From the NCBI GenBank assembly GCA_000004985.1, contig GG738875.1: a stretch of DNA of 64,000 bases; one strand, given 5' to 3'. The translations under genes were made by a program, and so were the position numbers. Origin of the DNA: Naegleria gruberi (Eukaryota). Under the pieces are notes generated by a model. The model saw only the letters and a program-made list of their open reading frames with translations, was not told where the DNA came from and did not search any database. Shown piece by piece: positions 21,034 to 54,545 of the stretch; position 1 is the stretch's first letter, and the number at the start of each line of letters is the position of its first letter.

Positions 21034-21303
21034 TTTTTTTCAGTGCGCCTAGTTTTCTAGAAGGATTGAAATATGCTGTTTGTTTCAAATATTCGTTGAA
21101 GATTATAAAGAATAATAAATGGTAATTACAATAAATGGTGAAGAGGTTGCGGCAACGTGCTACGAAAGATATTTTGTTGGTGTGTTGTTTTTTTGTTATC
21201 GGAGGATTTTTGATTTACAGTAGTAATTGGTTTGTGTTGCTTAATAAAAACGTGGGGAAAAAAAGACTGAATAATTGGCTTTCTTGCCTGTATAAGAGTA
21301 AAA

Positions 21304-21421
21304 GACTACAGCACCACAGGTTCCCAAGTTGTCTCCAACCTCAGTACTGATGTGGCTCTACGATGCTTAACTTCTCAAATCGGACGGGATGAGGTGCATT
21401 CATCGTGATATGGCCGTAGCC
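21304..21421 (-). rRNA. 5S rRNA gene, copy 1.
   Basis: 118 nt. The reverse complement reads GGCTACGGCCATATCACGATGAATGCACCTCATCCCGTCCGATTTGAGAAGTTAAGCATCGTAGAGCCACATCAGTACTGAGGTTGGAGACAACTTGGGAACCTGTGGTGCTGTAGTC, followed by TTTT. Helix I pairs 5' GGCTAC with 3' GTAGTC. Confidence 0.9.
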
Positions 21422-21741
21422 ATTCATTATATGAAAATTATGATATTGAACGAGTACAGAAATTATGTTTATATTTTATTTCAGTCATCGTTGGATGAAA
21501 TATTTGAATGATACGAAAGGTGAAAGTGTTAATGAAAATCCACCTTAATCCTCATTCAAGTTTCATTCAAATCCAACATTGTAAACTGGCAAACTAGCTT
21601 CCACTTTTCCAATCACCTTCCAATAACACTCCATTTTTAATTTGAGCCACTAAATGATTTAAATTGCCTCCGGAGCTCAAGAATACTCCACACAAAAAAA
21701 CAGCAACAATATTCAACATTCTTCATACAAAAGAATACAAA

Positions 21742-43289: not shown

Positions 43290-44597
43290 ATGTCTTCAAC
43301 TCAAAACACTAAAATTCCAACCTATCGTTTGCTTGGTAACTCTGGTCTCAGAGTATTCCCACTCTGTTTAGGAGCCATGCACTTTGGCTATAATGAAACA
43401 TTCTCCAATGCATTTGTAAGTTTCAAAACTTTCATTTATATTGGGTTGATCACCATATATTATTAGGGTATTGGCAGTTCCGATGAAGAAAGTGAGAAGA
43501 TTTTCTTAAAGTACATTCAATTGGGAGGTAATTTCATTGATACGTAAGTAGTAGTTGACCAAAACTATATCTCTAAATGAATTTCAAAGTGCCAATATTT
43601 ACTCATTAGGTAGCAGTGAAATCTTGATCGGTGAATTGATCAAGAAGCACAACATTGATCGTGATACCTTGGTAATTGCTACAAAATACTCTGGACCAAC
43701 TCCAGGTGTTACTGGTCCAAATGCTGCAGGAAATAATAAGAAAAATCTGTTCAAAGCTGTTGATGATTCATTGAAGAGATTGCAAACTCATTATATTGAT
43801 TTATTATATGTCCACTTTTGGGATTTCACTCTTGATGTTACTCAATTGGTTCGTTGGTAAGTAATTTGAGTTTATTCCAATTTCGAATACAATTTCATTA
43901 AGGTTGGACGAATTGGTTAAGAGTGGTAAAGTTCTTCATGTTGCCATCAGTGACACCCCAGCATGGATTGTCTCTAGAGCCAATACCTATGCTGAACAAA
44001 ACGCCCTCACTCCATTCACAGCCTATCAAGGAAGATATTCACTCGTTGATCGTGGCCAAGATCAAGATGTAATTCCAATGAGCAAGGCATTGAATATTGC
44101 AACTGTGCCATGGTAAGTGTGTGTGCATTTTCTATATATATATATATATATGGAAATTAATATGTTAATATCATGATGAATATTATGATGAATATAGGGG
44201 AATTGTTGGACAAGGTAAATTGACTGGTGTTAGAACTCGTGAATCAGATCAAGATGCCAAGAGAAAATTTGTGGAAATTAGTGAACAAGACGCCAAAGTT
44301 CAACAAGTTGTATTTGATATTGCTAAAGAAATTGGTCGTTCTCCAACTCAAGTAGCTATTAATTGGGTTTTGGGAAGAACCACTAGTCCAATTCTTGGTA
44401 CTAGAACTTTGGAACAATTTGAAGATGCTGTCAAAAGTCTTGAATTTGAATTGAGTCAAGAACAACTTGAAAGATTGAACAAGGCAAGTGAAAATTCACC
44501 AGCTGTCATTTTCCCTCACAGTTTTATTGGAAATAGTTTTGATACTAATCGGTGGTTGTTCCTTGGAGGTGATAAGACTTACAATATTACAAATTAA
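43290..44597 (+). CDS. Aldo-keto reductase (Kv-beta / aryl-alcohol dehydrogenase-like): join(43290..43415, 43467..43543, 43590..43856, 43903..44112, 44198..44597).
   Basis: Four introns of 51, 46, 46 and 85 nt, all GTAAGT...AG. Spliced, the product reads ...LGNSGLRVFPLCLGAMHFG...GGNFIDTANIYSLGSSEILIGELIKKHNIDRDTLVIATKY...HYIDLLYVHFWD...LVKSGKVLHVAISDTPAWIV...VPWGIVGQGKLTG...VAINWVLGRTTSPILGTRTLEQFEDAV. Confidence 0.85.
44133..44151. repeat. (TA)9 microsatellite, preceded by a (GT)4-5 run, inside AKR intron 4.
   Basis: Direct reading of ctatatatatatatatatatatg. Confidence 0.8.
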
Positions 44598-45151
44598 AGT
44601 TGAATCTTTGTAAATAAAATATATTGATGAGGAAGAGCCTTCGCCAATATATGATTTGATTTATTTAACAAGTCTATTTATCATGTCAAGTTAAAGATTA
44701 AAATATTGATATGCTTGTATTTCTTTATCAATTTGAATTAATTTCAAATCAAATTTCATATTATATTGAAAAACAACATGGAAATATTTGCTTATCAAAG
44801 TATGCGGCAGATGCCTTTTTAAACAGTGGTGACGGTTTAATAGATTTTATTAAGGATCATGATGAAGAGTATATAAATGGAAGGGCAAATAGTGACCTCT
44901 ATTTAATTCAAAAAAAATGGAGCCAGATGATACTCGAACAGAGCAACCAACTAACAAGTTTTTCTATAATGGCGATCCAAATGATGCAGTGACAGACAGG
45001 AAAATAATAGACTTTTTGAATAAATTGGTGCTAGACAACAAATGTGTAAACATTACACCATCCGAACTGGATGCTGATTCTATTATTACAGATTTTGATA
45101 TCGAGTGAATAAACATCATCAATGCTGTTTCACAATATCACACTTTTTTGA

Positions 45152-45262
45152 CCTCGTCTGGATCTTGACATTGAATTATTGGCTTCATTGTCCATACAGA
45201 ATCAAAGACTGATAGTAGAGATTGTCGCCATATTCGTGGCAGGCTTCTAGTCTAAATTATAA
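45152..45262 (+). repeat. Left copy of an inverted repeat pair of about 100 bp. Its partner is at 48972..49066.
   Basis: The core GATTGTCGCCATATTCGTGGCAGGCTTC is nearly identical to the reverse complement of 48983..49010 (GAAGCCTGCCAGGAATATGGCGACAATC). Homology extends both ways: CATTGTCCATACAGAATCAAAGACTG versus CACTGTTCATACAGTCAAAGACTG. Confidence 0.7.
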
Positions 45263-45488
45263 TGTTTCAATACAGTGAATAAACAACTTATTCCCTTCTT
45301 AATAAAGTTTCAACCTGTAATGAAAGAAATCTTCATCAATTTACTACCTTTATTACTGAGAAGAAAGTTTTCAGCAAAATTCTTCAATATTCACTCTTGG
45401 GAGATTTCAGAGAAATTATTGAATGATGGTTGTACCCACAGGTCCACGTTGTTTTCTTATTCAATATTAAGATTTTAAGATAGGAAAT

Positions 45489-45606
45489 GACTACGGCCAT
45501 ATCACGATCCATGCACCTCATCCCGTCCGATTTGAGAAGTTAAGCATCGTCGAGCCACATCAGTACTGAGGTTGGAGACAACTTGGGAACCTGTGGTGCT
45601 GTAGTC
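45489..45606 (+). rRNA. 5S rRNA gene, copy 2.
   Basis: GACTACGGCCATATCACGATCCATGCACC...GGTGCTGTAGTC followed by TTTT. Confidence 0.9.
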
Positions 45607-46290
45607 TTTTACTCTTTTTGTACAGTATCAAGATTAAGTGTTAACTTTGTCAGTTAAATTCCATTAACAATTAATATGTGTGTGATGAATTCACCAATTT
45701 ATAAACAAATAAATGTTGATTGTTAAAAATTGTCGTGTGTTAAAAGGCATGGGTGGAGTTGCGCCACCAACACTTCAGAGAAATGAGCTGATCGTGATGT
45801 TAGAATTACACTACATGCCTCAAATGCAGTGTAATTTTACAAGCATTCTAACCTTCAGATTGTTTTAAATGTTCACTTCATTATGGTATAATTCTTTTTT
45901 TAAAAACAGAATTCAGCCAACTCTGAAATGGAAGCTTCAATTAATCGATGCTTTAATTCTCGTTAGTTATGTAACATATGATATTTCATCGTAAATGAAC
46001 TGTTTAACACTGTTAATATGGATCATTTTAGCACAATGTGGACATTATACTAAGGCCAACTAAGGAATCATTTTATTACGAATGAAATTGGGTGAAAGGG
46101 ATCTGTGAGAAGAATCTTATTCGAAAGTGATTACTTGGTTTGTATCAATAGAAAATTGCAAATATTTATACAACCAATGACAACAAGAATATTAATTACT
46201 TTTCCAGTTGATGATCATAAAAAGGAACAACAAACGTCACTCATCAATTAATAAAATAAATCAAAAAAATTAAAAAAATATTAAAAAAAA

Positions 46291-47712
46291 ATGACAACAA
46301 GAATCAACATTCTCCCTGACGAATTACAACTCGCTGCAGGTGTCTTGTCTTTACCAAACATTTTCGAAATCAAGTATTCTGCACCAGTTCGTCTCTACAA
46401 AGCAGCCAATAATAATCAATGGTCATATGCCAATTCTTATGGAATTTTGACAGTTACATTGGTTGAAAAACAATCAGTAGTAATGATTCGGTTGGTAGAT
46501 TTGAAGAGTAAATCAGTTACTATGGAACAAGAATGTTATGAAGGTTTCGACTATCAAACACTTTCTTCCAATTTTCATGCATTCGAATCTGATGATGGTT
46601 TTGTTGGATTGTTATTTGCTGAAAGATTTGATGCTGATCAATTTGCCAAGCAAGTTTGTCAACTCATTCGTTTGAAAGCAACTGGTTCTATCAATGGTGG
46701 TTCAACTCCAAGTTTGCCTTCAACTAAACCTTCTGTTAATGTGAGAAGTGACAGTTCTGATTCTTCTTCACCAACTGGTAATGCTGGTTCCAGTACTGCA
46801 CCACCTACTCCAGTGAAGAAGACTAGTCCTCCTCCATCTACTCCTCCACCAGTTGCTAACAAGCCAACTGCTGTCAATACTTCAATTGCTGCCAGTAGCT
46901 CAGTACATACTACTAGCACTTCCCATAAGGAACCTGAAAAGAAACACACTTCTAGCAATAGTGGTGGAGGTAGTAGCAGTAGTGGAGGTGGTGGTGGTTT
47001 ATTCTCCAAGATTTTCGGAACAAAGAATAAGGACCAAATTCCTGACCGTTCACAAATCAAAATTTCTGGACCAAAGGTTGACAAGTTTAAACACGTTTCA
47101 CACATTGGTTTTGATCCAAAAAGTGGATTTACAGACATCCCTCCGGAGTTAAAAACTATATTTGCGAAGGCGGGCATTTCTGAAGATGAATTGAAAGATA
47201 AGAAAACTGCCAAATTTTTAATGAAGACACTTGTCACTGTCACATCAGATGCTCCTCCACCTCCTTCTTTGGATGTTCCAAGTGGAAGACCACAACCTCC
47301 ACCAACCCCAGGAACTAGATCAACCCCTCCTCCACCTCCTTTCAAGGGAGCTAGCTCAAATGCTCCTTCTAACTCAAGTGCCATTGGAGTTGGTGGTTTT
47401 GTTCCTCCTCCACCAACCAATGTTCCTCCTCCACCAGTTGTCGATCTCTCTGTTAAGCCTAGAGTATCTGTTGCAAGTCCAGCAACTGATTCTGATGGTG
47501 GTGCCTCAGGTGGAGTTGACATGCTTTCTGAAATTAAAAATAAGAAATTGAGAAATGTAAAGCAAGAAGATTTACCAGAATTCAAGAATATGGCTGAAAG
47601 TGATCAAAACAATTTGGCAGCCAAGATTGCAGGTATTATGGAACTTCGTCGTGGTAATATTGAATATTCCAGTGAAGATGAGGAAAGTGATGATGATGAT
47701 TGGGAATTGTAA
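46291..47712 (+). CDS. WASP-family actin nucleation-promoting factor (WH1-CRIB-polyPro-WH2-acidic).
   Basis: N-terminal WH1/EVH1 domain. CRIB motif IKISGPKVDKFKHVSHIGFDPKSGF. Long PPPP tracts. WH2 reads DMLSEIKNKKLRNVK. The acidic tail is SEDEESDDDDWEL, with the conserved Trp. Confidence 0.8.
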   Translation: MTTRINILPDELQLAAGVLSLPNIFEIKYSAPVRLYKAANNNQWSYANSYGILTVTLVEKQSVVMIRLVDLKSKSVTMEQECYEGFDYQTLSSNFHAFESDDGFVGLLFAERFDADQFAKQVCQLIRLKATGSINGGSTPSLPSTKPSVNVRSDSSDSSSPTGNAGSSTAPPTPVKKTSPPPSTPPPVANKPTAVNTSIAASSSVHTTSTSHKEPEKKHTSSNSGGGSSSSGGGGGLFSKIFGTKNKDQIPDRSQIKISGPKVDKFKHVSHIGFDPKSGFTDIPPELKTIFAKAGISEDELKDKKTAKFLMKTLVTVTSDAPPPPSLDVPSGRPQPPPTPGTRSTPPPPPFKGASSNAPSNSSAIGVGGFVPPPPTNVPPPPVVDLSVKPRVSVASPATDSDGGASGGVDMLSEIKNKKLRNVKQEDLPEFKNMAESDQNNLAAKIAGIMELRRGNIEYSSEDEESDDDDWEL

Positions 47713-48095
47713 ATATTTCAAAAACATATATTAATTGCAATAATACAAATCGGTTTATCGTATTTGTGAGCTACATTGTAATTTGTAATAAAATATCACA
47801 AAATGGAATTCAAGAAAAGTTTTAATGATTGATTGGCTAACAAATCAGTTAGTTGACAACACAACTTATTTCCCTCAAGTATTTTCGATTAATTTCAAAT
47901 TGAAAATATTTGGAAATATTTAATGCTTTATGAATATCACCATCTGTTCCATTATAATAGTGTCTCCATAAGGTTCTAATCTTATCCTTACTGAATTATC
48001 AAACACTGAATTGAACTCTCTTATATTGAATCACTTCGGCATTGAATCCAATAGTGGGTATCTACTTTCTCATCTAATTGAATCTTGACAGACTT

Positions 48096-48616
48096 GATGT
48101 TTTACCAGCATCCAAACCTAATGAACATGGATTGACCCATTCCCACAAGTTTGGTCAATTCGATCCAATTAGAACCTTCAACACCAATATTATTATTGCT
48201 AATATCAAGAATGGTCAACTTCTTCCCAATCCAAGTGTTAATTCATTCAATTATTTTATGAATACTGATCCTTTCTCTACAATATCATTATGACCAATAC
48301 CAAGTTTAATTAACTGTTTCAGTTTGCTAATATATTTAGCTCCTTCACCACTAACGCGATTGTAATACATCAAGTTTGGTTAATTGTTTCATTTCACTAA
48401 TGGATTTAGCTCCTCCATCTCCAATGTTATTAATGCTAATATCAAGATTAGCTCTTTCATTCCCCCAATGAATTTAGCACCTCTTTCTCCAAAATTATTT
48501 TGATTAATAGAAAGATTAGTTAATTGATTCATTTCGCTAATATCCATTTCTGTTAATCCATTCATCAAATTAAATATTTTACAATTAAATATTTTAGAAA
48601 CATTTCTAAGTTCCAC
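48096..48616 (-). pseudogene. Decayed ribonuclease-inhibitor-type leucine-rich-repeat gene fragment.
   Basis: RI-LRR units (LTxLxIxxNxIGxxGAKxI) are readable in three different frames. They are ...MNQLTNLSINQNNFGERGAKFIGGMKEL..., then ...YYNRVSGEGAKYISKLKQLIKLGIGHND..., then ...KLTILDISNNNIGVEGSNWIELTKL.... At least two 1-nt frame breaks and one stop separate them, and there is no room for introns. Confidence 0.5.
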
Positions 48617-48971
48617 TTTTAAAGTTCAACATTTTGCAAAAATCGACCTTCCATTACTTTCGAATCCTTTTCCAATTTTTAATTAAAGAAAGTTTCATTT
48701 CCGAAAAATTGACATTCTGTCACTGTGTTGAAACCAATGCACAATTCATCACCAGAAATTTAAAATCATGATTGTGATGAGATAGAATTTCATCAGGAAA
48801 GAGAATGTGTTTGCTCATTTTTTTGGGTTTTGTAAATTTCAAAGTTGCGCCAACAATAGGCTCTAAGAATGTGGGTTTGATAAGCACACGATTTAAAAGA
48901 ATGAGGATCAGGATTGGATCTTACTAAATCAATGCAAAAGGAATATATGTTGAAAACGATTTCAATTGTTA

Positions 48972-49066
48972 ATTTGGACGGGAAGCCTGCCAGGAATATG
49001 GCGACAATCCCGCTACAGTCTTTGACTGTATGAACAGTGAATTCAAGAGTTCTTGGACGAATCTTG
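48972..49066 (-). repeat. Right copy (inverted) of the repeat at 45152..45262.
   Basis: See the feature at 45152..45262. Confidence 0.7.
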
Positions 49067-49226
49067 TTTGTTCAGGTTATTGAAGAAAGTAAAAAGGTCG
49101 ATCACTCTTCTATTTATTGATCATTAGATATGTTGAATTGCTCGATGAAAATTTTGGTTTCCTATTTTCTTATCATTTCGAAATTGAAACTTCACCTTAC
49201 TTAAGAATTAAAAAAGACTGGTTCTC

Positions 49227-49472
49227 TTATTTTCTCTTTTCAATCTTTCGAATTTCCACTTGTTTTGCCTTCTCTTCAAACTTTTTAATTTCACTTTTAT
49301 ATAACTTCAGCCATCTATCTTCAATTACTCTATTTCTTTCCTCTCCAGTTAATCCTCTTCTAAAATGAATCCTCTTCCAACAATCTTCCTGAAAAATCCT
49401 AAATGCATTACTCATCTTGATGATCTTCTTTGTTATTTTCTGTTTGTTGGGTTTTAATTCATCAATTGACAT
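49227..49472 (-). CDS. Hypothetical small basic protein (81 aa).
   Basis: The ATG follows GTAAAAATG. The ORF is K/R/E-rich. No domain recognised. Confidence 0.3.
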   Translation of the reverse strand: MSIDELKPNKQKITKKIIKMSNAFRIFQEDCWKRIHFRRGLTGEERNRVIEDRWLKLYKSEIKKFEEKAKQVEIRKIEKRK

Positions 49473-49655
49473 TTTTACTTTCTTTTGGATTGGGTGTTGT
49501 AATGGAAGAGGACGATTTACTGGTGGAACTCTTTTTCTCTTAAGAATGTTTTCATTTTTTTTGTTAAATTATTTGATTGGTTTTGTAACAGACCCAACAT
49601 TTGGACGGTTTCAACTTTACAAAAATTGGTAAATATTAAAATCTCTATCAATGTT

Positions 49656-51089
49656 TTACTCATAGCATCTGTCATAATATTCATTGATTGATGAATGTGA
49701 AATACAAGCCACAAATTTTTCTCTACTCATATCATAATACTCCTTAATGGTATCAAAATTGGCGTCAGGATTACACCTCACAATGTTTGCATAGAGAACC
49801 AATTGATGAATCAATGAGTCCTTTTTCTCAATAAATTGACGATTAACAAAATTGTGAACTCTTCGTTCAGACCAGTTATGAATTTTCTCATAATCTTGGT
49901 TCCTTCTCGTATTAATAATTTCCACATACATCAATTCAGACAATATTTCATAATTTACAAGGTCATCCAAAGAGTTACATCCTTGAATGGAAATTCTCAA
50001 AAGTTTGGGAAATCTCTTCCTTGTTATTGCAGATAGAATATTCCTCTCCAATTTTCCAGTATCTATCTGTAAATAATAATTATTCTCTGTTGAAGGAAAT
50101 CTGATTGTTAAATCACGAACATTTGAAAATTCTTCGTGTCCTTCCAGGAAATTGTCATACTCCTCTCCAGTTTCATAAGATGTTACGAAAGAAAAGCATA
50201 GAAACTGAGCATGTTTCGGAATTGTAAACTGTTGATAATTCTTGTTGAAATTGATTGAAATGGCCACATAAATTGGCTGCAATGTTTCAAATATGATAGA
50301 GTCTTCTTCAAAATTATACTCCAAATCAATTAATAAACCAAGTGAGCTTGAATCCATAAAATTATCGGTAAATAAACCTTTCGAAAATAGATAACATCTT
50401 TCTAAAGTTTCATAACAGCTTTCCCCACTATGCCTTTCACTATCGAAATATGAAACCATATCAAGAGATAATATCAATGCCTTATGTAGAAACAAATCAT
50501 ACGGATCCAGTTGAGTAATTTGTTTGATTTTCTCAAATTTTGACTCTGAAACCATTAATTTCTGAACTCTTTCTTCGAATAATTTGTTCACATCCTCATC
50601 AATAAACTCATTTTCTATTTCATTCAAATCCACATCCTCAAAGGAATAACCAATACATTTCGACTTATCAATAATATCCTTATACTCTCGATTGGAATTC
50701 ATCTCAACTGCCTCTATCAATTTCTGCATTTTGACAAAAGGAATTGATTCGTAAACAGAAATGTCACCTCTTGCCAACGAAAATCCCTCAAAAGATTGAT
50801 ATCGTTTCCAATAAACAACCATCTCCAAAATATTCGAAACCTCCTTCCAGAAATCACCCATTTCAACCAGAAACAAATAGGTAGCCTTTCTTGAAATTGT
50901 TTTACACCATTTATGCACAGCTCTCACATTTTCCACATCCAAACCATTCAAAATTCTTGGATAAATCAAATTCTTAAATTTCATAATTTCATTATTATTT
51001 TGCAATAAAGAAAGATGAATCGGACCAAGCCAATATTCAAAAATACAATAACGCCAAATATCCAGTGGAAGGGAGAGAAGATGAGTCAT
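49656..51089 (-). CDS. Hypothetical protein with an N-terminal F-box-like motif.
   Basis: The N-terminus is LSLPLDIWRYCIFEYW. The 477-aa ORF is clean. The rest is unrecognised. Confidence 0.5.
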   Translation of the reverse strand: MTHLLSLPLDIWRYCIFEYWLGPIHLSLLQNNNEIMKFKNLIYPRILNGLDVENVRAVHKWCKTISRKATYLFLVEMGDFWKEVSNILEMVVYWKRYQSFEGFSLARGDISVYESIPFVKMQKLIEAVEMNSNREYKDIIDKSKCIGYSFEDVDLNEIENEFIDEDVNKLFEERVQKLMVSESKFEKIKQITQLDPYDLFLHKALILSLDMVSYFDSERHSGESCYETLERCYLFSKGLFTDNFMDSSSLGLLIDLEYNFEEDSIIFETLQPIYVAISINFNKNYQQFTIPKHAQFLCFSFVTSYETGEEYDNFLEGHEEFSNVRDLTIRFPSTENNYYLQIDTGKLERNILSAITRKRFPKLLRISIQGCNSLDDLVNYEILSELMYVEIINTRRNQDYEKIHNWSERRVHNFVNRQFIEKKDSLIHQLVLYANIVRCNPDANFDTIKEYYDMSREKFVACISHSSINEYYDRCYE

Positions 51090-51354
51090 TGATGGTAGTC
51101 GTGGTGAGAATTTTTTTGGTTTGGAAAATAAACTTTTAATGCTCGATAAAACCTTTTGTGAACTTTGTGCAATTCCGTAATTGCAAGACGAATCTAAAGA
51201 ATAATTTCCTTTAGCTTTTTTACGAGGATGAGAATCTAAATATCTTCCTTACAACATTTCATTTTGAAATAGTAAATAGACACTTAGGTTTTTAATTTAG
51301 GTTTTAACTGTACAATGTTTTTAACTTAGGGTTACAAATATTACAACCGATTGA

Positions 51355-52002
51355 TTACTCGCTTTCAGAGTCTTCATCAGAATCATCTTCAGATTCCTCC
51401 TTCTTAGTCTTCTTCTTTGGTGGAGGTGGTTGAGTAGCATCATACTTGCTCTTTTCGATATTGTAGGCAGCCTTAAGTTCAGCAGCCTTGTTGACGTATG
51501 GAGCCTTTTCAGCATCGTTCATCTTTCCCCACTTTTCACCGACGAGTTTGGCAACTTCAGTAACCTTCAAGGTTGGATTTTCAGCAACAAGACTCTTTCT
51601 GTATGTTTGAGAGAAGAGCATATAGGATGAGAGAGGTCTCTTTGGAGCATTTTCGTCCTTCTTGGCCTTTCTCTTCTTTTTCTTCTTCTTGGCACCTTCA
51701 TCATCAGATGATTCGGATTCATCAGAGGATTCTGGCTTATTCTTCTTGTATTCTTCGAATTGCTTCTTGTAGACTTCCATATTCTTCTTAGATACAGAAT
51801 TATACTTGTCCTTTTCACTGTCGGTCAACTTGCCCCATTCTTCACCCAAGAGTTTTGAAACTTCACTAGCACTCTTCTTTTCACCTTCACCCAAGGTGGC
51901 CTTTACTTTTTCTCTACGTTCGTCACAGAACAAGAAGAAACCAGTCTTTGGCCTCTTTGGGGCATTTGGATCCTTTTTCTTTGATGATTTCTTTCCGGCC
52001 AT
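51355..52002 (-). CDS. HMGB-type chromatin protein with two HMG boxes and an acidic tail.
   Basis: Box A is PKRPKTGFFLFCDERREKVK...WGKLTDSEKDKY. Box B is PKRPLSSYMLFSQTYRKSLVAENP...WGKMNDAEKAPY. There are acidic linkers and the tail is EESEDDSDEDSESE. Confidence 0.8.
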   Translation of the reverse strand: MAGKKSSKKKDPNAPKRPKTGFFLFCDERREKVKATLGEGEKKSASEVSKLLGEEWGKLTDSEKDKYNSVSKKNMEVYKKQFEEYKKNKPESSDESESSDDEGAKKKKKKRKAKKDENAPKRPLSSYMLFSQTYRKSLVAENPTLKVTEVAKLVGEKWGKMNDAEKAPYVNKAAELKAAYNIEKSKYDATQPPPPKKKTKKEESEDDSDEDSESE

Positions 52003-52249
52003 TTGTTATTAGTCGTTAATATCTAGGTTAATGTTGTGAATTTTTATTTGATGGAATTTTTTAGGCTTTTAAATTAAAAATAGTACCGTTGCAGCCAATA
52101 ACCGTTATGATTAAAATTTCGATCCACTTTGAAAGTTATTGTAAAGTTTTCAAACGATGTTTAGCGGTAGTAAAAGTGGTGACATTTTGCAATTGGATCA
52201 GATGATGGAAATAAATAATACAATTTGTTTTGTACACGGTTAATTTAAT

Positions 52250-53678
52250 TTATTTGAACAACTTCTTCAAGCTCATGTTGTGTTCGTCTCCTCTCTTTGT
52301 TACCTTAGCGACAGCCATTTCCAAATCTTCTTGAGTAACGTGGACACGTCTTTCACGCAAAGCAAACATACCACCTTCTGTACAGGTAGCCTTGATTTCA
52401 GCACCAGAAGCACCTCCAAGCATTGATGCAATCTTTCTGAGATTGATACCACGAGTCAAATTCATCTTTCTGGAGTGAATCTTAAGAATATCTAATCTGG
52501 CCAATTCGTTTGGATTTGGGAATTCAATTTTACGATCAATTCTACCTGGTCTTAACAAGGCAGGATCAAGAATATCAATACGATTTGTAGCCATGATAAT
52601 TTTGATGTTTTGTGTAGATTCGAAACCGTCCAATTGGTTAAGTAATTCCAACATGGTTCTTTGTACTTCACTATCACCACCTCCTTTACCACCTTCTGTT
52701 CTCGTACTACCAATACTGTCAATTTCGTCCATGAAAATAATAGATGGGGCATGTTCACGAGCCATGACGAACAATTCTCTGACCATTCTACTACCTTCAC
52801 CAATGTATTTCTGTACCAACTCTGAACCAGAAACACGAATAAAAGTACAATCTGTGTGGTGAGCAACAGCTCTAGCCAATAAAGTCTATTCCAATCATAC
52901 AATTATAATGTTGTTACACAATTTGTAGAGTGATCACAAGTATTCCGAATCATTAATGATGATGATGAAATACAATTATTATACAATAATAAAAAGATCC
53001 AAAGTCAATATAAATACAATCAAATAAAACAAACTCACCTTACCAGTACCTGGTGGACCATACATGATAACTATAGATTTAAAATGTTAAATAAATATTA
53101 AATACTAATGATGATCACTTACCTCCTTTTGGTTGAGCAATACCCAAGCTTTCAAAAAGTTCAGGGTGTTTGATTGGAAGTTCGATCACTTCCTTAACTT
53201 CTTTAATTTGTTCATCAAGACCTCCGACCATTTCATATGTAGCATCAGGAACCTTTTCTACTTTCATCAAACTGACCAAAGGATCAATCTTATTAGGGAG
53301 AATTTTATGGAGAGCATAGGAATCATTTCTGAGAGCAACTCTTACACCTGGTGATAAATCCTTCAATTCAATAGATTTGTCAATATCCACAATATATTTT
53401 CCTTCTTGGCTGATCTTGATAAGAACCTTCTTTTTTCCCATAACTTTAACAACTTCACCAACATGGCTTCCTGGTTCTTGGAGTTGTTGTAATTCTTCCT
53501 TCAAGCTCCTCACACGTCCGTTCAATTCATTTCTTTGTGCTTGTAAACGTCTAAGATTTTCGATTTTATCCTTTAATACAATTTCCTTCTCTTGAATCTT
53601 GGCAATGTAATAATTTTTCAATCCATTGGCTGATGGTGGTTTTGATACCAGTGTATTTCCAGAAGATGATGAGAGCAT
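52250..53678 (-). CDS. 26S proteasome regulatory AAA-ATPase (closest to Rpt1/PSMC2): join(complement(52250..52885, 53039..53070, 53123..53678)).
   Basis: Exon 1 ends ...[26 protein letters not shown]...[59 protein letters not shown] 52-nt intron follows. The 32-nt exon 2 encodes [11 protein letters not shown] (Walker A). A 153-nt intron follows. Exon 3 contains [31 protein letters not shown]...[11 protein letters not shown]...[13 protein letters not shown]...[23 protein letters not shown]. Confidence 0.85.
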
Positions 53679-54108: not shown

Positions 54109-54177
54109 AAAGTATCAGTATTCCCCATACGTTCACATTGTTTTCTTATTCAAAATTAAGATTTTAACAGAGTGAAT

Positions 54178-54295
54178 GACTACGGCCATATCACGATGAA
54201 TGCACCTCATCCCGTCCGATTTGAGAAGTTAAGCATCGTCGAGCCACATCAGTACTGAGGTTGGAGACAACTTGGGAACCTGTGGTGCTGTAGTC
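54178..54295 (+). rRNA. 5S rRNA gene, copy 3.
   Basis: Identical to copy 2 except CGATGAATGC. Followed by TTTTT. Confidence 0.9.
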
Positions 54296-54545
54296 TTTTT
54301 ATTTTCACTTAAGGTTCCTTTAATGGAAGACCTTCTTATTTTACATAATAATAGATCACCCCAAAATTCTGTAAAAGTGAAAGTGTTTAAATGTGCCTTT
54401 TATGGCCAGTGGAACCAACATGCAAAAATTTCGTGCGTACAATCTCATCAGTTTGAGCGCTTTGAATTTCCTTTATCTTTCCCGCTCAAAACCATTTTTA
54501 CTTTTTTCAAAATCAAAACAAAAAAGCAAAACTCAAACAATAACA

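Follow-up and report, generated by a model that had tools for sequence, protein, structure and literature searches.

Inverted duplications flank the breakpoints of inversions in the staggered-break model, which has been described for Drosophila inversions, and templated 'filler' insertions arise at double-strand-break repair or segmental-duplication junctions by template switching of the type represented by microhomology-mediated break-induced replication and fork stalling and template switching (MMBIR/FoSTeS). Here we analyze a pair of short inverted repeats in a 64,000-nucleotide stretch of contig GG738875.1 of Naegleria gruberi NEG-M (GenBank assembly GCA_000004985.1), hereafter the window. 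The left copy (IR-L) and the right copy (IR-R) bracket a 3.9-kb segment that holds a 5S rRNA gene, the WASP gene and a pseudogene with leucine-rich repeats (LRR). We tentatively regard the pair, with a probability of roughly 40%, as the remnant of a rearrangement, namely a local inverted duplication without function; we infer both that one copy originated locally from the other and that neither copy has a function.

The pair shares with the products of staggered-break inversions a short inverted, otherwise single-copy sequence at both ends of a segment, sharp boundaries and the lack of transposon hallmarks. It differs from them in that no outgroup or allele shows the opposite orientation, only one duplicate pair is present, and the Naegleria pair is old (~15-18% diverged). 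The likeness to filler insertions lies in the location of IR-L, which is found, along with a copied 5S unit, in a patchwork of ~1 kb that separates the left context from the WASP block (starting at 46172), and in the presumed template, which is a few kilobases away and inverted; the difference is that no diagnostic microhomology was established at the IR-L junctions.

A diverged inverted repeat pair

The inverted pair is real and far beyond chance. IR-L and IR-R (Table 1) show 81.6% identity across 87 columns with two 2-nt indels (blastn, E = 5.6e-16), which corresponds to an ungapped identity of 85.5%, and the local alignment score of the pair is 89, whereas shuffles averaged 17.5 and never exceeded 29. 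A repeat search delimited gapless arms of 40 nt (45220-45259 and 48970-49009) that are 90% complementary and 3710 nt apart. In the window there are exactly 2 occurrences of the 28-nt core contained in these arms, GATTGTCGCCATATTC[G/C]TGGCAGGCTTC, one perfect and one with a single mismatch; 100 shuffles gave none. These results bear out the initial annotation, which had described an inverted pair of about 100 bp with a 28-nt core differing at one base, apart from the outermost 14-21 nt of the proposed arms (45152-45172 and 49053-49066), where similarity is at the shuffle level and the assignment is unsupported. The outer and inner flanks of the pair yielded alignment scores no higher than those of shuffles; all combinations of the four flanks, in either orientation, lacked homology above shuffles except for a weak AT-rich match around IR-R; and in the 75 nt outside the pair, compared in fixed register, there were 17/75 matches (null mean, 20.5). 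The repeat unit is therefore 83-87 nt, slightly shorter than the 95-111 nt originally assigned to it. Both copies have AATAAA motifs ~60 nt upstream; an extension of the homology as far as these motifs was excluded by the fixed-register comparison.

The staggered-break model in its two-sided form predicts a second pair of inverted duplicates. No such pair was found in any flank combination, the sole signal being the weak AT-rich inverted match around IR-R. This match (48667-48706 and 49176-49216; 41 nt, 78%) encloses IR-R together with the start of the LRR pseudogene; it beats 200/200 shuffles locally, but reaches only E 0.03 in the window-wide blast.

No third copy of the repeat was detected in a self-comparison of the window, in which the matches consisted of the three 5S units, the repeat pair and LRR-internal repeats, and IR-L/IR-R are the only non-genic dispersed repeat there. 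A profile derived from the two copies (nhmmer), with which IR-L itself scores 91 bits, revealed no diverged copies in the window or in four Naegleria loci, L001-L004 (36 kb), that are introduced below. Scans of JGI metagenomes, viral contigs and prokaryote genomes, which are poor proxies for the N. gruberi genome, revealed no match to a 23-nt core pattern. In the literature, a string search with the core yielded nothing but primer matches that are unrelated, and the literature on repeats and MITEs (miniature inverted-repeat transposable elements) in Naegleria provided general repeat statistics only. The unit is short and non-coding: its indels are not multiples of three, stops are present in the frames of IR-L, and the open frame of one copy is not open in the other. 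A joint protein query, composed of the open reading frames (ORFs) around both copies and the reading frames of the repeat, produced no match at E <= 1.

Rearrangement of the WASP locus

The comparison of haplotypes and species included two contigs of ENA metagenome ERZ929261, L001 and L004, which represent an N. gruberi-like strain or haplotype, as well as two WASP loci, one of N. lovaniensis (L002) and another of Naegleria from a Logan assembly (L003). L001 matches window positions 49346-52512 with 95.3% identity, and L004 matches positions 46221-47822 with 95.7% identity, continuing to 48129, and thus shares WASP and the tail of the pseudogene. Neither repeat copy is spanned by L001 or L004, and IR-R falls in the gap between them. 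The WASP coding sequence is 96.8% identical between the haplotype and the window, and non-coding DNA is 78.6-94% identical excluding gaps, with many 30-90-bp indels.

The homology with L004 starts at window position 46172 (L004 264-295 aligns with 46172-46204), and none is found further left. In L004, positions 1-263 contain the end of another ORF and, at a distance of 200 bp upstream of WASP, a minus-strand tRNA-Glu(CTC); this sequence upstream of the breakpoint does not occur anywhere in the 64-kb window, which at the position of the tRNA-Glu has a 555-bp spacer, the 5S unit and IR-L. IR-L is thus located ~900 bp outside the shared WASP block, and IR-R is inside it. As an observation apart, with tRNA-Glu in L004 and 5S in the window, a gene transcribed by RNA polymerase III (Pol III) sits at the junction in both versions.

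Three WASP copies are present on different scaffolds of N. gruberi NEG-M (P0001, P0048, P0002), and one in the N. lovaniensis locus. The WASP of the window (XP_002675872.1), annotated as 'wiscott-aldrich syndrome protein', belongs to a 396-kb scaffold; P0002 (NAEGRDRAFT_82342), on an 11.5-kb scaffold, is a chimera in which WASP residues 1 to ~334 are followed by a copine domain; and the WASP encoded in L004 (P0049) has variant residues in common with P0048 (EFC42532.1, NAEGRDRAFT_69609), which is on a 384-kb scaffold. Given the three WASP copies, one of them chimeric, and the divergence of the haplotypes left of 46172, the locus is therefore structurally unstable. WASP lies in a segmentally duplicated, rearranged region, with 46172 as one boundary of the shared block.

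Among the three readings put forward in the initial annotation, that of an inversion or recombination breakpoint is the best supported; the locus is demonstrably rearranged, and a scar of this kind therefore accords best with the evidence. Under such a scenario, ~85 bp of intergenic DNA would have been copied in reverse orientation ~3.7 kb away during DNA repair or rearrangement. One candidate mechanism is a staggered-break inversion, which would leave an inverted duplicate at the ends; another is a 'filler' insertion at the junction of a segmental duplication, templated by sequence a few kilobases away. A local origin is suggested by the occurrence of exactly two copies in 64 kb, close to each other and inverted, and by the sharp ends of the unit, the lack of transposon hallmarks and the lack of an RNA family match. 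It is suggested also by the context. The surrounding locus is a patchwork of a dispersed 5S unit, an orphan spacer, one of the three WASP copies and pseudogenes; IR-L is in the non-shared junction next to the copied 5S unit, IR-R is between stretches common to both haplotypes, and the pair is accompanied by a demonstrable structural breakpoint nearby, decayed flanking genes and indel-rich non-coding DNA. The identity of the copies without gaps (85.5%) is within the range observed for non-coding DNA between the haplotypes (78.6-94%), suggestive of the same interpretation, as is the low repeat content of the N. gruberi genome (5.1%; PMC6125883).

Several observations weigh against a rearrangement scar. 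A dispersed family at ~1 copy/30 kb would look identical in a 64-kb window and, given that two random copies in 64 kb would by our own calculation fall <=3.9 kb apart with a ~12% chance, proximity alone is weak evidence. The sole mapped breakpoint (46172) is 900 bp from IR-L and not at IR-L. None of the outgroup loci shows the interval in the opposite orientation; L002 and L003 have only WASP in common with the window (tblastn). Furthermore, IR-R is predicted to fold unusually well (z = -4.6), which is not what a neutral scar predicts.

L002 and L003 have the gene order TFIIE-beta, F-box/LRR gene, WASP, and lack the repeat. Synteny of N. gruberi with the N. fowleri group has also been reported to be low (PMC6125883).

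Alternative origins of the pair

The main rival explanation, a realistic possibility in our estimation although not the one we prefer, is that IR-L and IR-R belong to a short, interspersed non-coding repeat family of low copy number, a non-autonomous element or element fragment that lacks classical MITE termini, and were independently inserted 3.7 kb apart, in opposite orientation. Such a family would account for a discrete ~85-bp unit whose ends are sharp and whose four flanks are all unrelated, for the intergenic location of both copies, and for their ~15-18% divergence and small indels, which are typical of old repeat copies; furthermore, one copy is strongly structured according to the predicted fold, as RNA-derived elements often are. 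However, marks of transposition are lacking. Within each copy, no terminal inverted repeats were found (longest exact run, 4 nt; at best, 10/30 positions matched between the first 30 nt and the reverse complement of the last 30), and neither copy has a target-site duplication, of the TA/TAA type or any other, the longest junction words being AATTA, which is partly inside the element, and ACAA, i.e. the chance level in AT-rich DNA. An A-rich tail is not present on either copy. The absence of a third copy from 64 kb of the window and 36 kb of Naegleria loci also argues against a family, as does the absence of the core from the metagenome, viral and prokaryote collections, with the qualification already made for these as proxies.

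The anatomy of the copies thus lends no support to the proposal that they are MITE-like insertions in opposite orientation. They resemble Stowaway/Tourist-like MITEs in size (~85-100 bp), in being non-coding and intergenic and in having discrete boundaries, but differ from them in the lack of terminal inverted repeats and target-site duplications, and two copies are seen in the window. The likeness to short interspersed nuclear elements (SINEs) derived from 5S rRNA or tRNA consists in the short length, the structure of one copy, the nearby 5S gene and a weak resemblance of IR-R to 5S positions 7-45 (p ~0.05; the resemblance of IR-L is not significant). In contrast to these SINEs, the copies have no tail, the 5S and tRNA covariance models gave no match, and ARAGORN detected no tRNA-like head on either copy. 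A 5S-derived SINE origin was rejected: the resemblance is not significant, the alignment to 5S being reached by 52/1000 shuffles for IR-R and by 440/1000 for IR-L, in addition to the lack of a covariance model match.

Compared to a dispersed family, a functional element is a considerably less probable explanation and, in our view, an unlikely one. The repeat would then be a small structured RNA gene or a cis-acting RNA/DNA element, serving either the converging outer ORFs as a 3'-flank or terminator element or the LRR gene as a promoter-proximal one (IR-R is ~150 nt upstream of the ATG of the LRR pseudogene). The principal support comes from IR-R, for which three consecutive hairpins are predicted on the minus strand (-27.7 kcal/mol, z = -4.58 compared to shuffles), whereas the fold of IR-L is no better than those of shuffles (z = +0.13). 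When the structure derived from IR-R was imposed on IR-L, 20/25 pairs were kept, with 2 double compensatory changes and 1 change to wobble, and 5 were broken; the sole difference in the 28-nt core falls in a predicted hairpin loop. The conservation of pairs between the copies may be a weak hint of an RNA structure, but the corresponding controls were not significant, with two sequences only and the structure taken from one of them, and in an alignment of 82% identity, a core with 27/28 matches would not be exceptional by chance (~0.2, by our own estimate). Each copy lies in the sense orientation downstream of an outer ORF, 65 nt (IR-L) and 175 nt (IR-R) past the stop; these ORFs, however, are unannotated or decayed. 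Against a function also stand the lack of a T-run terminator after either copy and the fact that, up to 10 kb from WASP, N. lovaniensis and another Naegleria species do not have the repeat. Rfam 15 contained no family matching either copy at the gathering threshold, nor at E <= 10 over the interval or per copy, and inspection of the copies by eye revealed no features of box C/D or H/ACA small nucleolar RNAs and no Pol III A/B boxes. That the repeat is an undescribed three-hairpin RNA element of Naegleria, conceivably a small non-coding RNA gene or the master-like copy of a short mobile element of RNA origin, with IR-R near-intact and IR-L decayed, appears quite improbable.

Finally, it is very improbable that 5S, WASP and the LRR gene are carried by a 3.9-kb composite mobile element with the copies as its terminal inverted repeats, as had also been proposed: although the inverted copies bracket the segment exactly and the number of WASP copies is three in NEG-M vs. 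one in the N. lovaniensis locus, there is no target-site duplication around the whole unit (the sole common word, the 6-mer ATCTTG, is 5 and 9 nt off the ends), no transposase among the ORFs or Pfam matches of the interval, whose contents are only 5S, WASP and the LRR pseudogene, termini that are 82% identical would be poor substrates, the haplotype shares 46172-48129 but diverges at 46172, well inside the unit and not at its left terminus, and the third WASP copy breaks inside the gene.

Interval contents and neighbouring genes

The contents of the interval as initially described, namely a 5S gene (copy 2), a non-coding stretch with a palindrome, an intact WASP gene and a decayed RI-type LRR gene, were confirmed by Rfam, a repeat search, protein identity and frame analysis, respectively (Table 1).

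Table 1 The inverted repeat pair, the bracketed interval and the outer neighbours (window positions).
Feature	Position (strand)	Description	Remarks
Outer left neighbour	44711-45108 (+)	Overlapping 93- and 63-aa ORFs in different frames	Ends before IR-L
IR-L (left copy)	45173-45259 (+)	Repeat unit, 87 nt	
28-nt core	45220-45247 (+); partner 48982-49009 (-)	One mismatch	
5S unit, copy 2	45435-45616 (+); gene 45489-45607	Rfam 5S, 97.8 bits	~54 bp of common upstream sequence
Spacer	45617-46171	Non-coding, 555 bp; palindrome 45890-45913	No counterpart in L004
Start of L004 homology	46172-46290 (+)	Structural breakpoint	Holds 15-mer copy 46176-46190
WASP gene	46291-47712 (+)	Intact, 473 aa, WH1 + PBD	100% identical to XP_002675872.1 (N. 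gruberi NEG-M)
F-box-like / RI-type LRR pseudogene	47950-48818 (-), 3' limit approximate	LRR motifs in three frames, many stops	LRR-period direct repeats
IR-R (right copy)	49052-48970 (-)	Repeat unit, 83 nt	
Outer right neighbour	49227-49472 (-)	HMG-box-like ORF, 81 aa	Weak HMG_box_2 match, E 0.0086

The GC content is ~34% throughout the window, which contains three dispersed 5S genes and one tRNA-Val. The 5S units (21294-21450 on the minus strand, 45435-45616 and 54124-54299 on the plus strand) are copies of a ~176-bp unit that are 92-94% identical and include a few downstream bases. Copy 2 differs from the other two copies at three adjacent bases (GATCCATG vs. GATGAATG) and scores 97.8 vs. 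106 bits. Next to the WASP gene, the first 15 nt of its start region (46290-46304, AATGACAACAAGAAT) are duplicated 114 bp upstream, where the haplotype homology begins; the ENA haplotype has the same duplication of this 15-mer.

Outside the pair, the overlapping ORFs on the left match no Pfam family and no database protein. A shift at an A-run near 44910-44920 keeps them from joining into one reading frame, and they may represent a frameshifted pseudogene or a sequencing error. Further to the left, an aldo-keto reductase gene (43290-44597) consists of four ORF pieces in different frames, compatible with short introns or decay; the best identity obtained with the protein query was 57%, and with no database protein above this value, the N. 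gruberi proteome appears to lack an annotation of the gene. On the right, the HMG-box-like gene (49227-49560, minus strand, aligned with L001 2990-3186) is longer in the ENA haplotype, where an upstream ATG is present; the window has AAG in place of this ATG and an 8-bp deletion, and its ORF therefore starts later, at 81 aa. A 477-aa neighbouring ORF had no relative in the JGI scan.

A single old 87-bp intergenic inverted duplicate is an ordinary by-product of genome rearrangement and on its own matters little. If such units do form a family, a small repeat class would be added to a repeat-poor genome, and a composite element, if true, would explain the multiple WASP copies of N. gruberi. The pair has modest value as a marker of a region where WASP, a motility gene studied in N. 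gruberi, has been duplicated and rearranged, with dispersed 5S and tRNA genes at the junctions.

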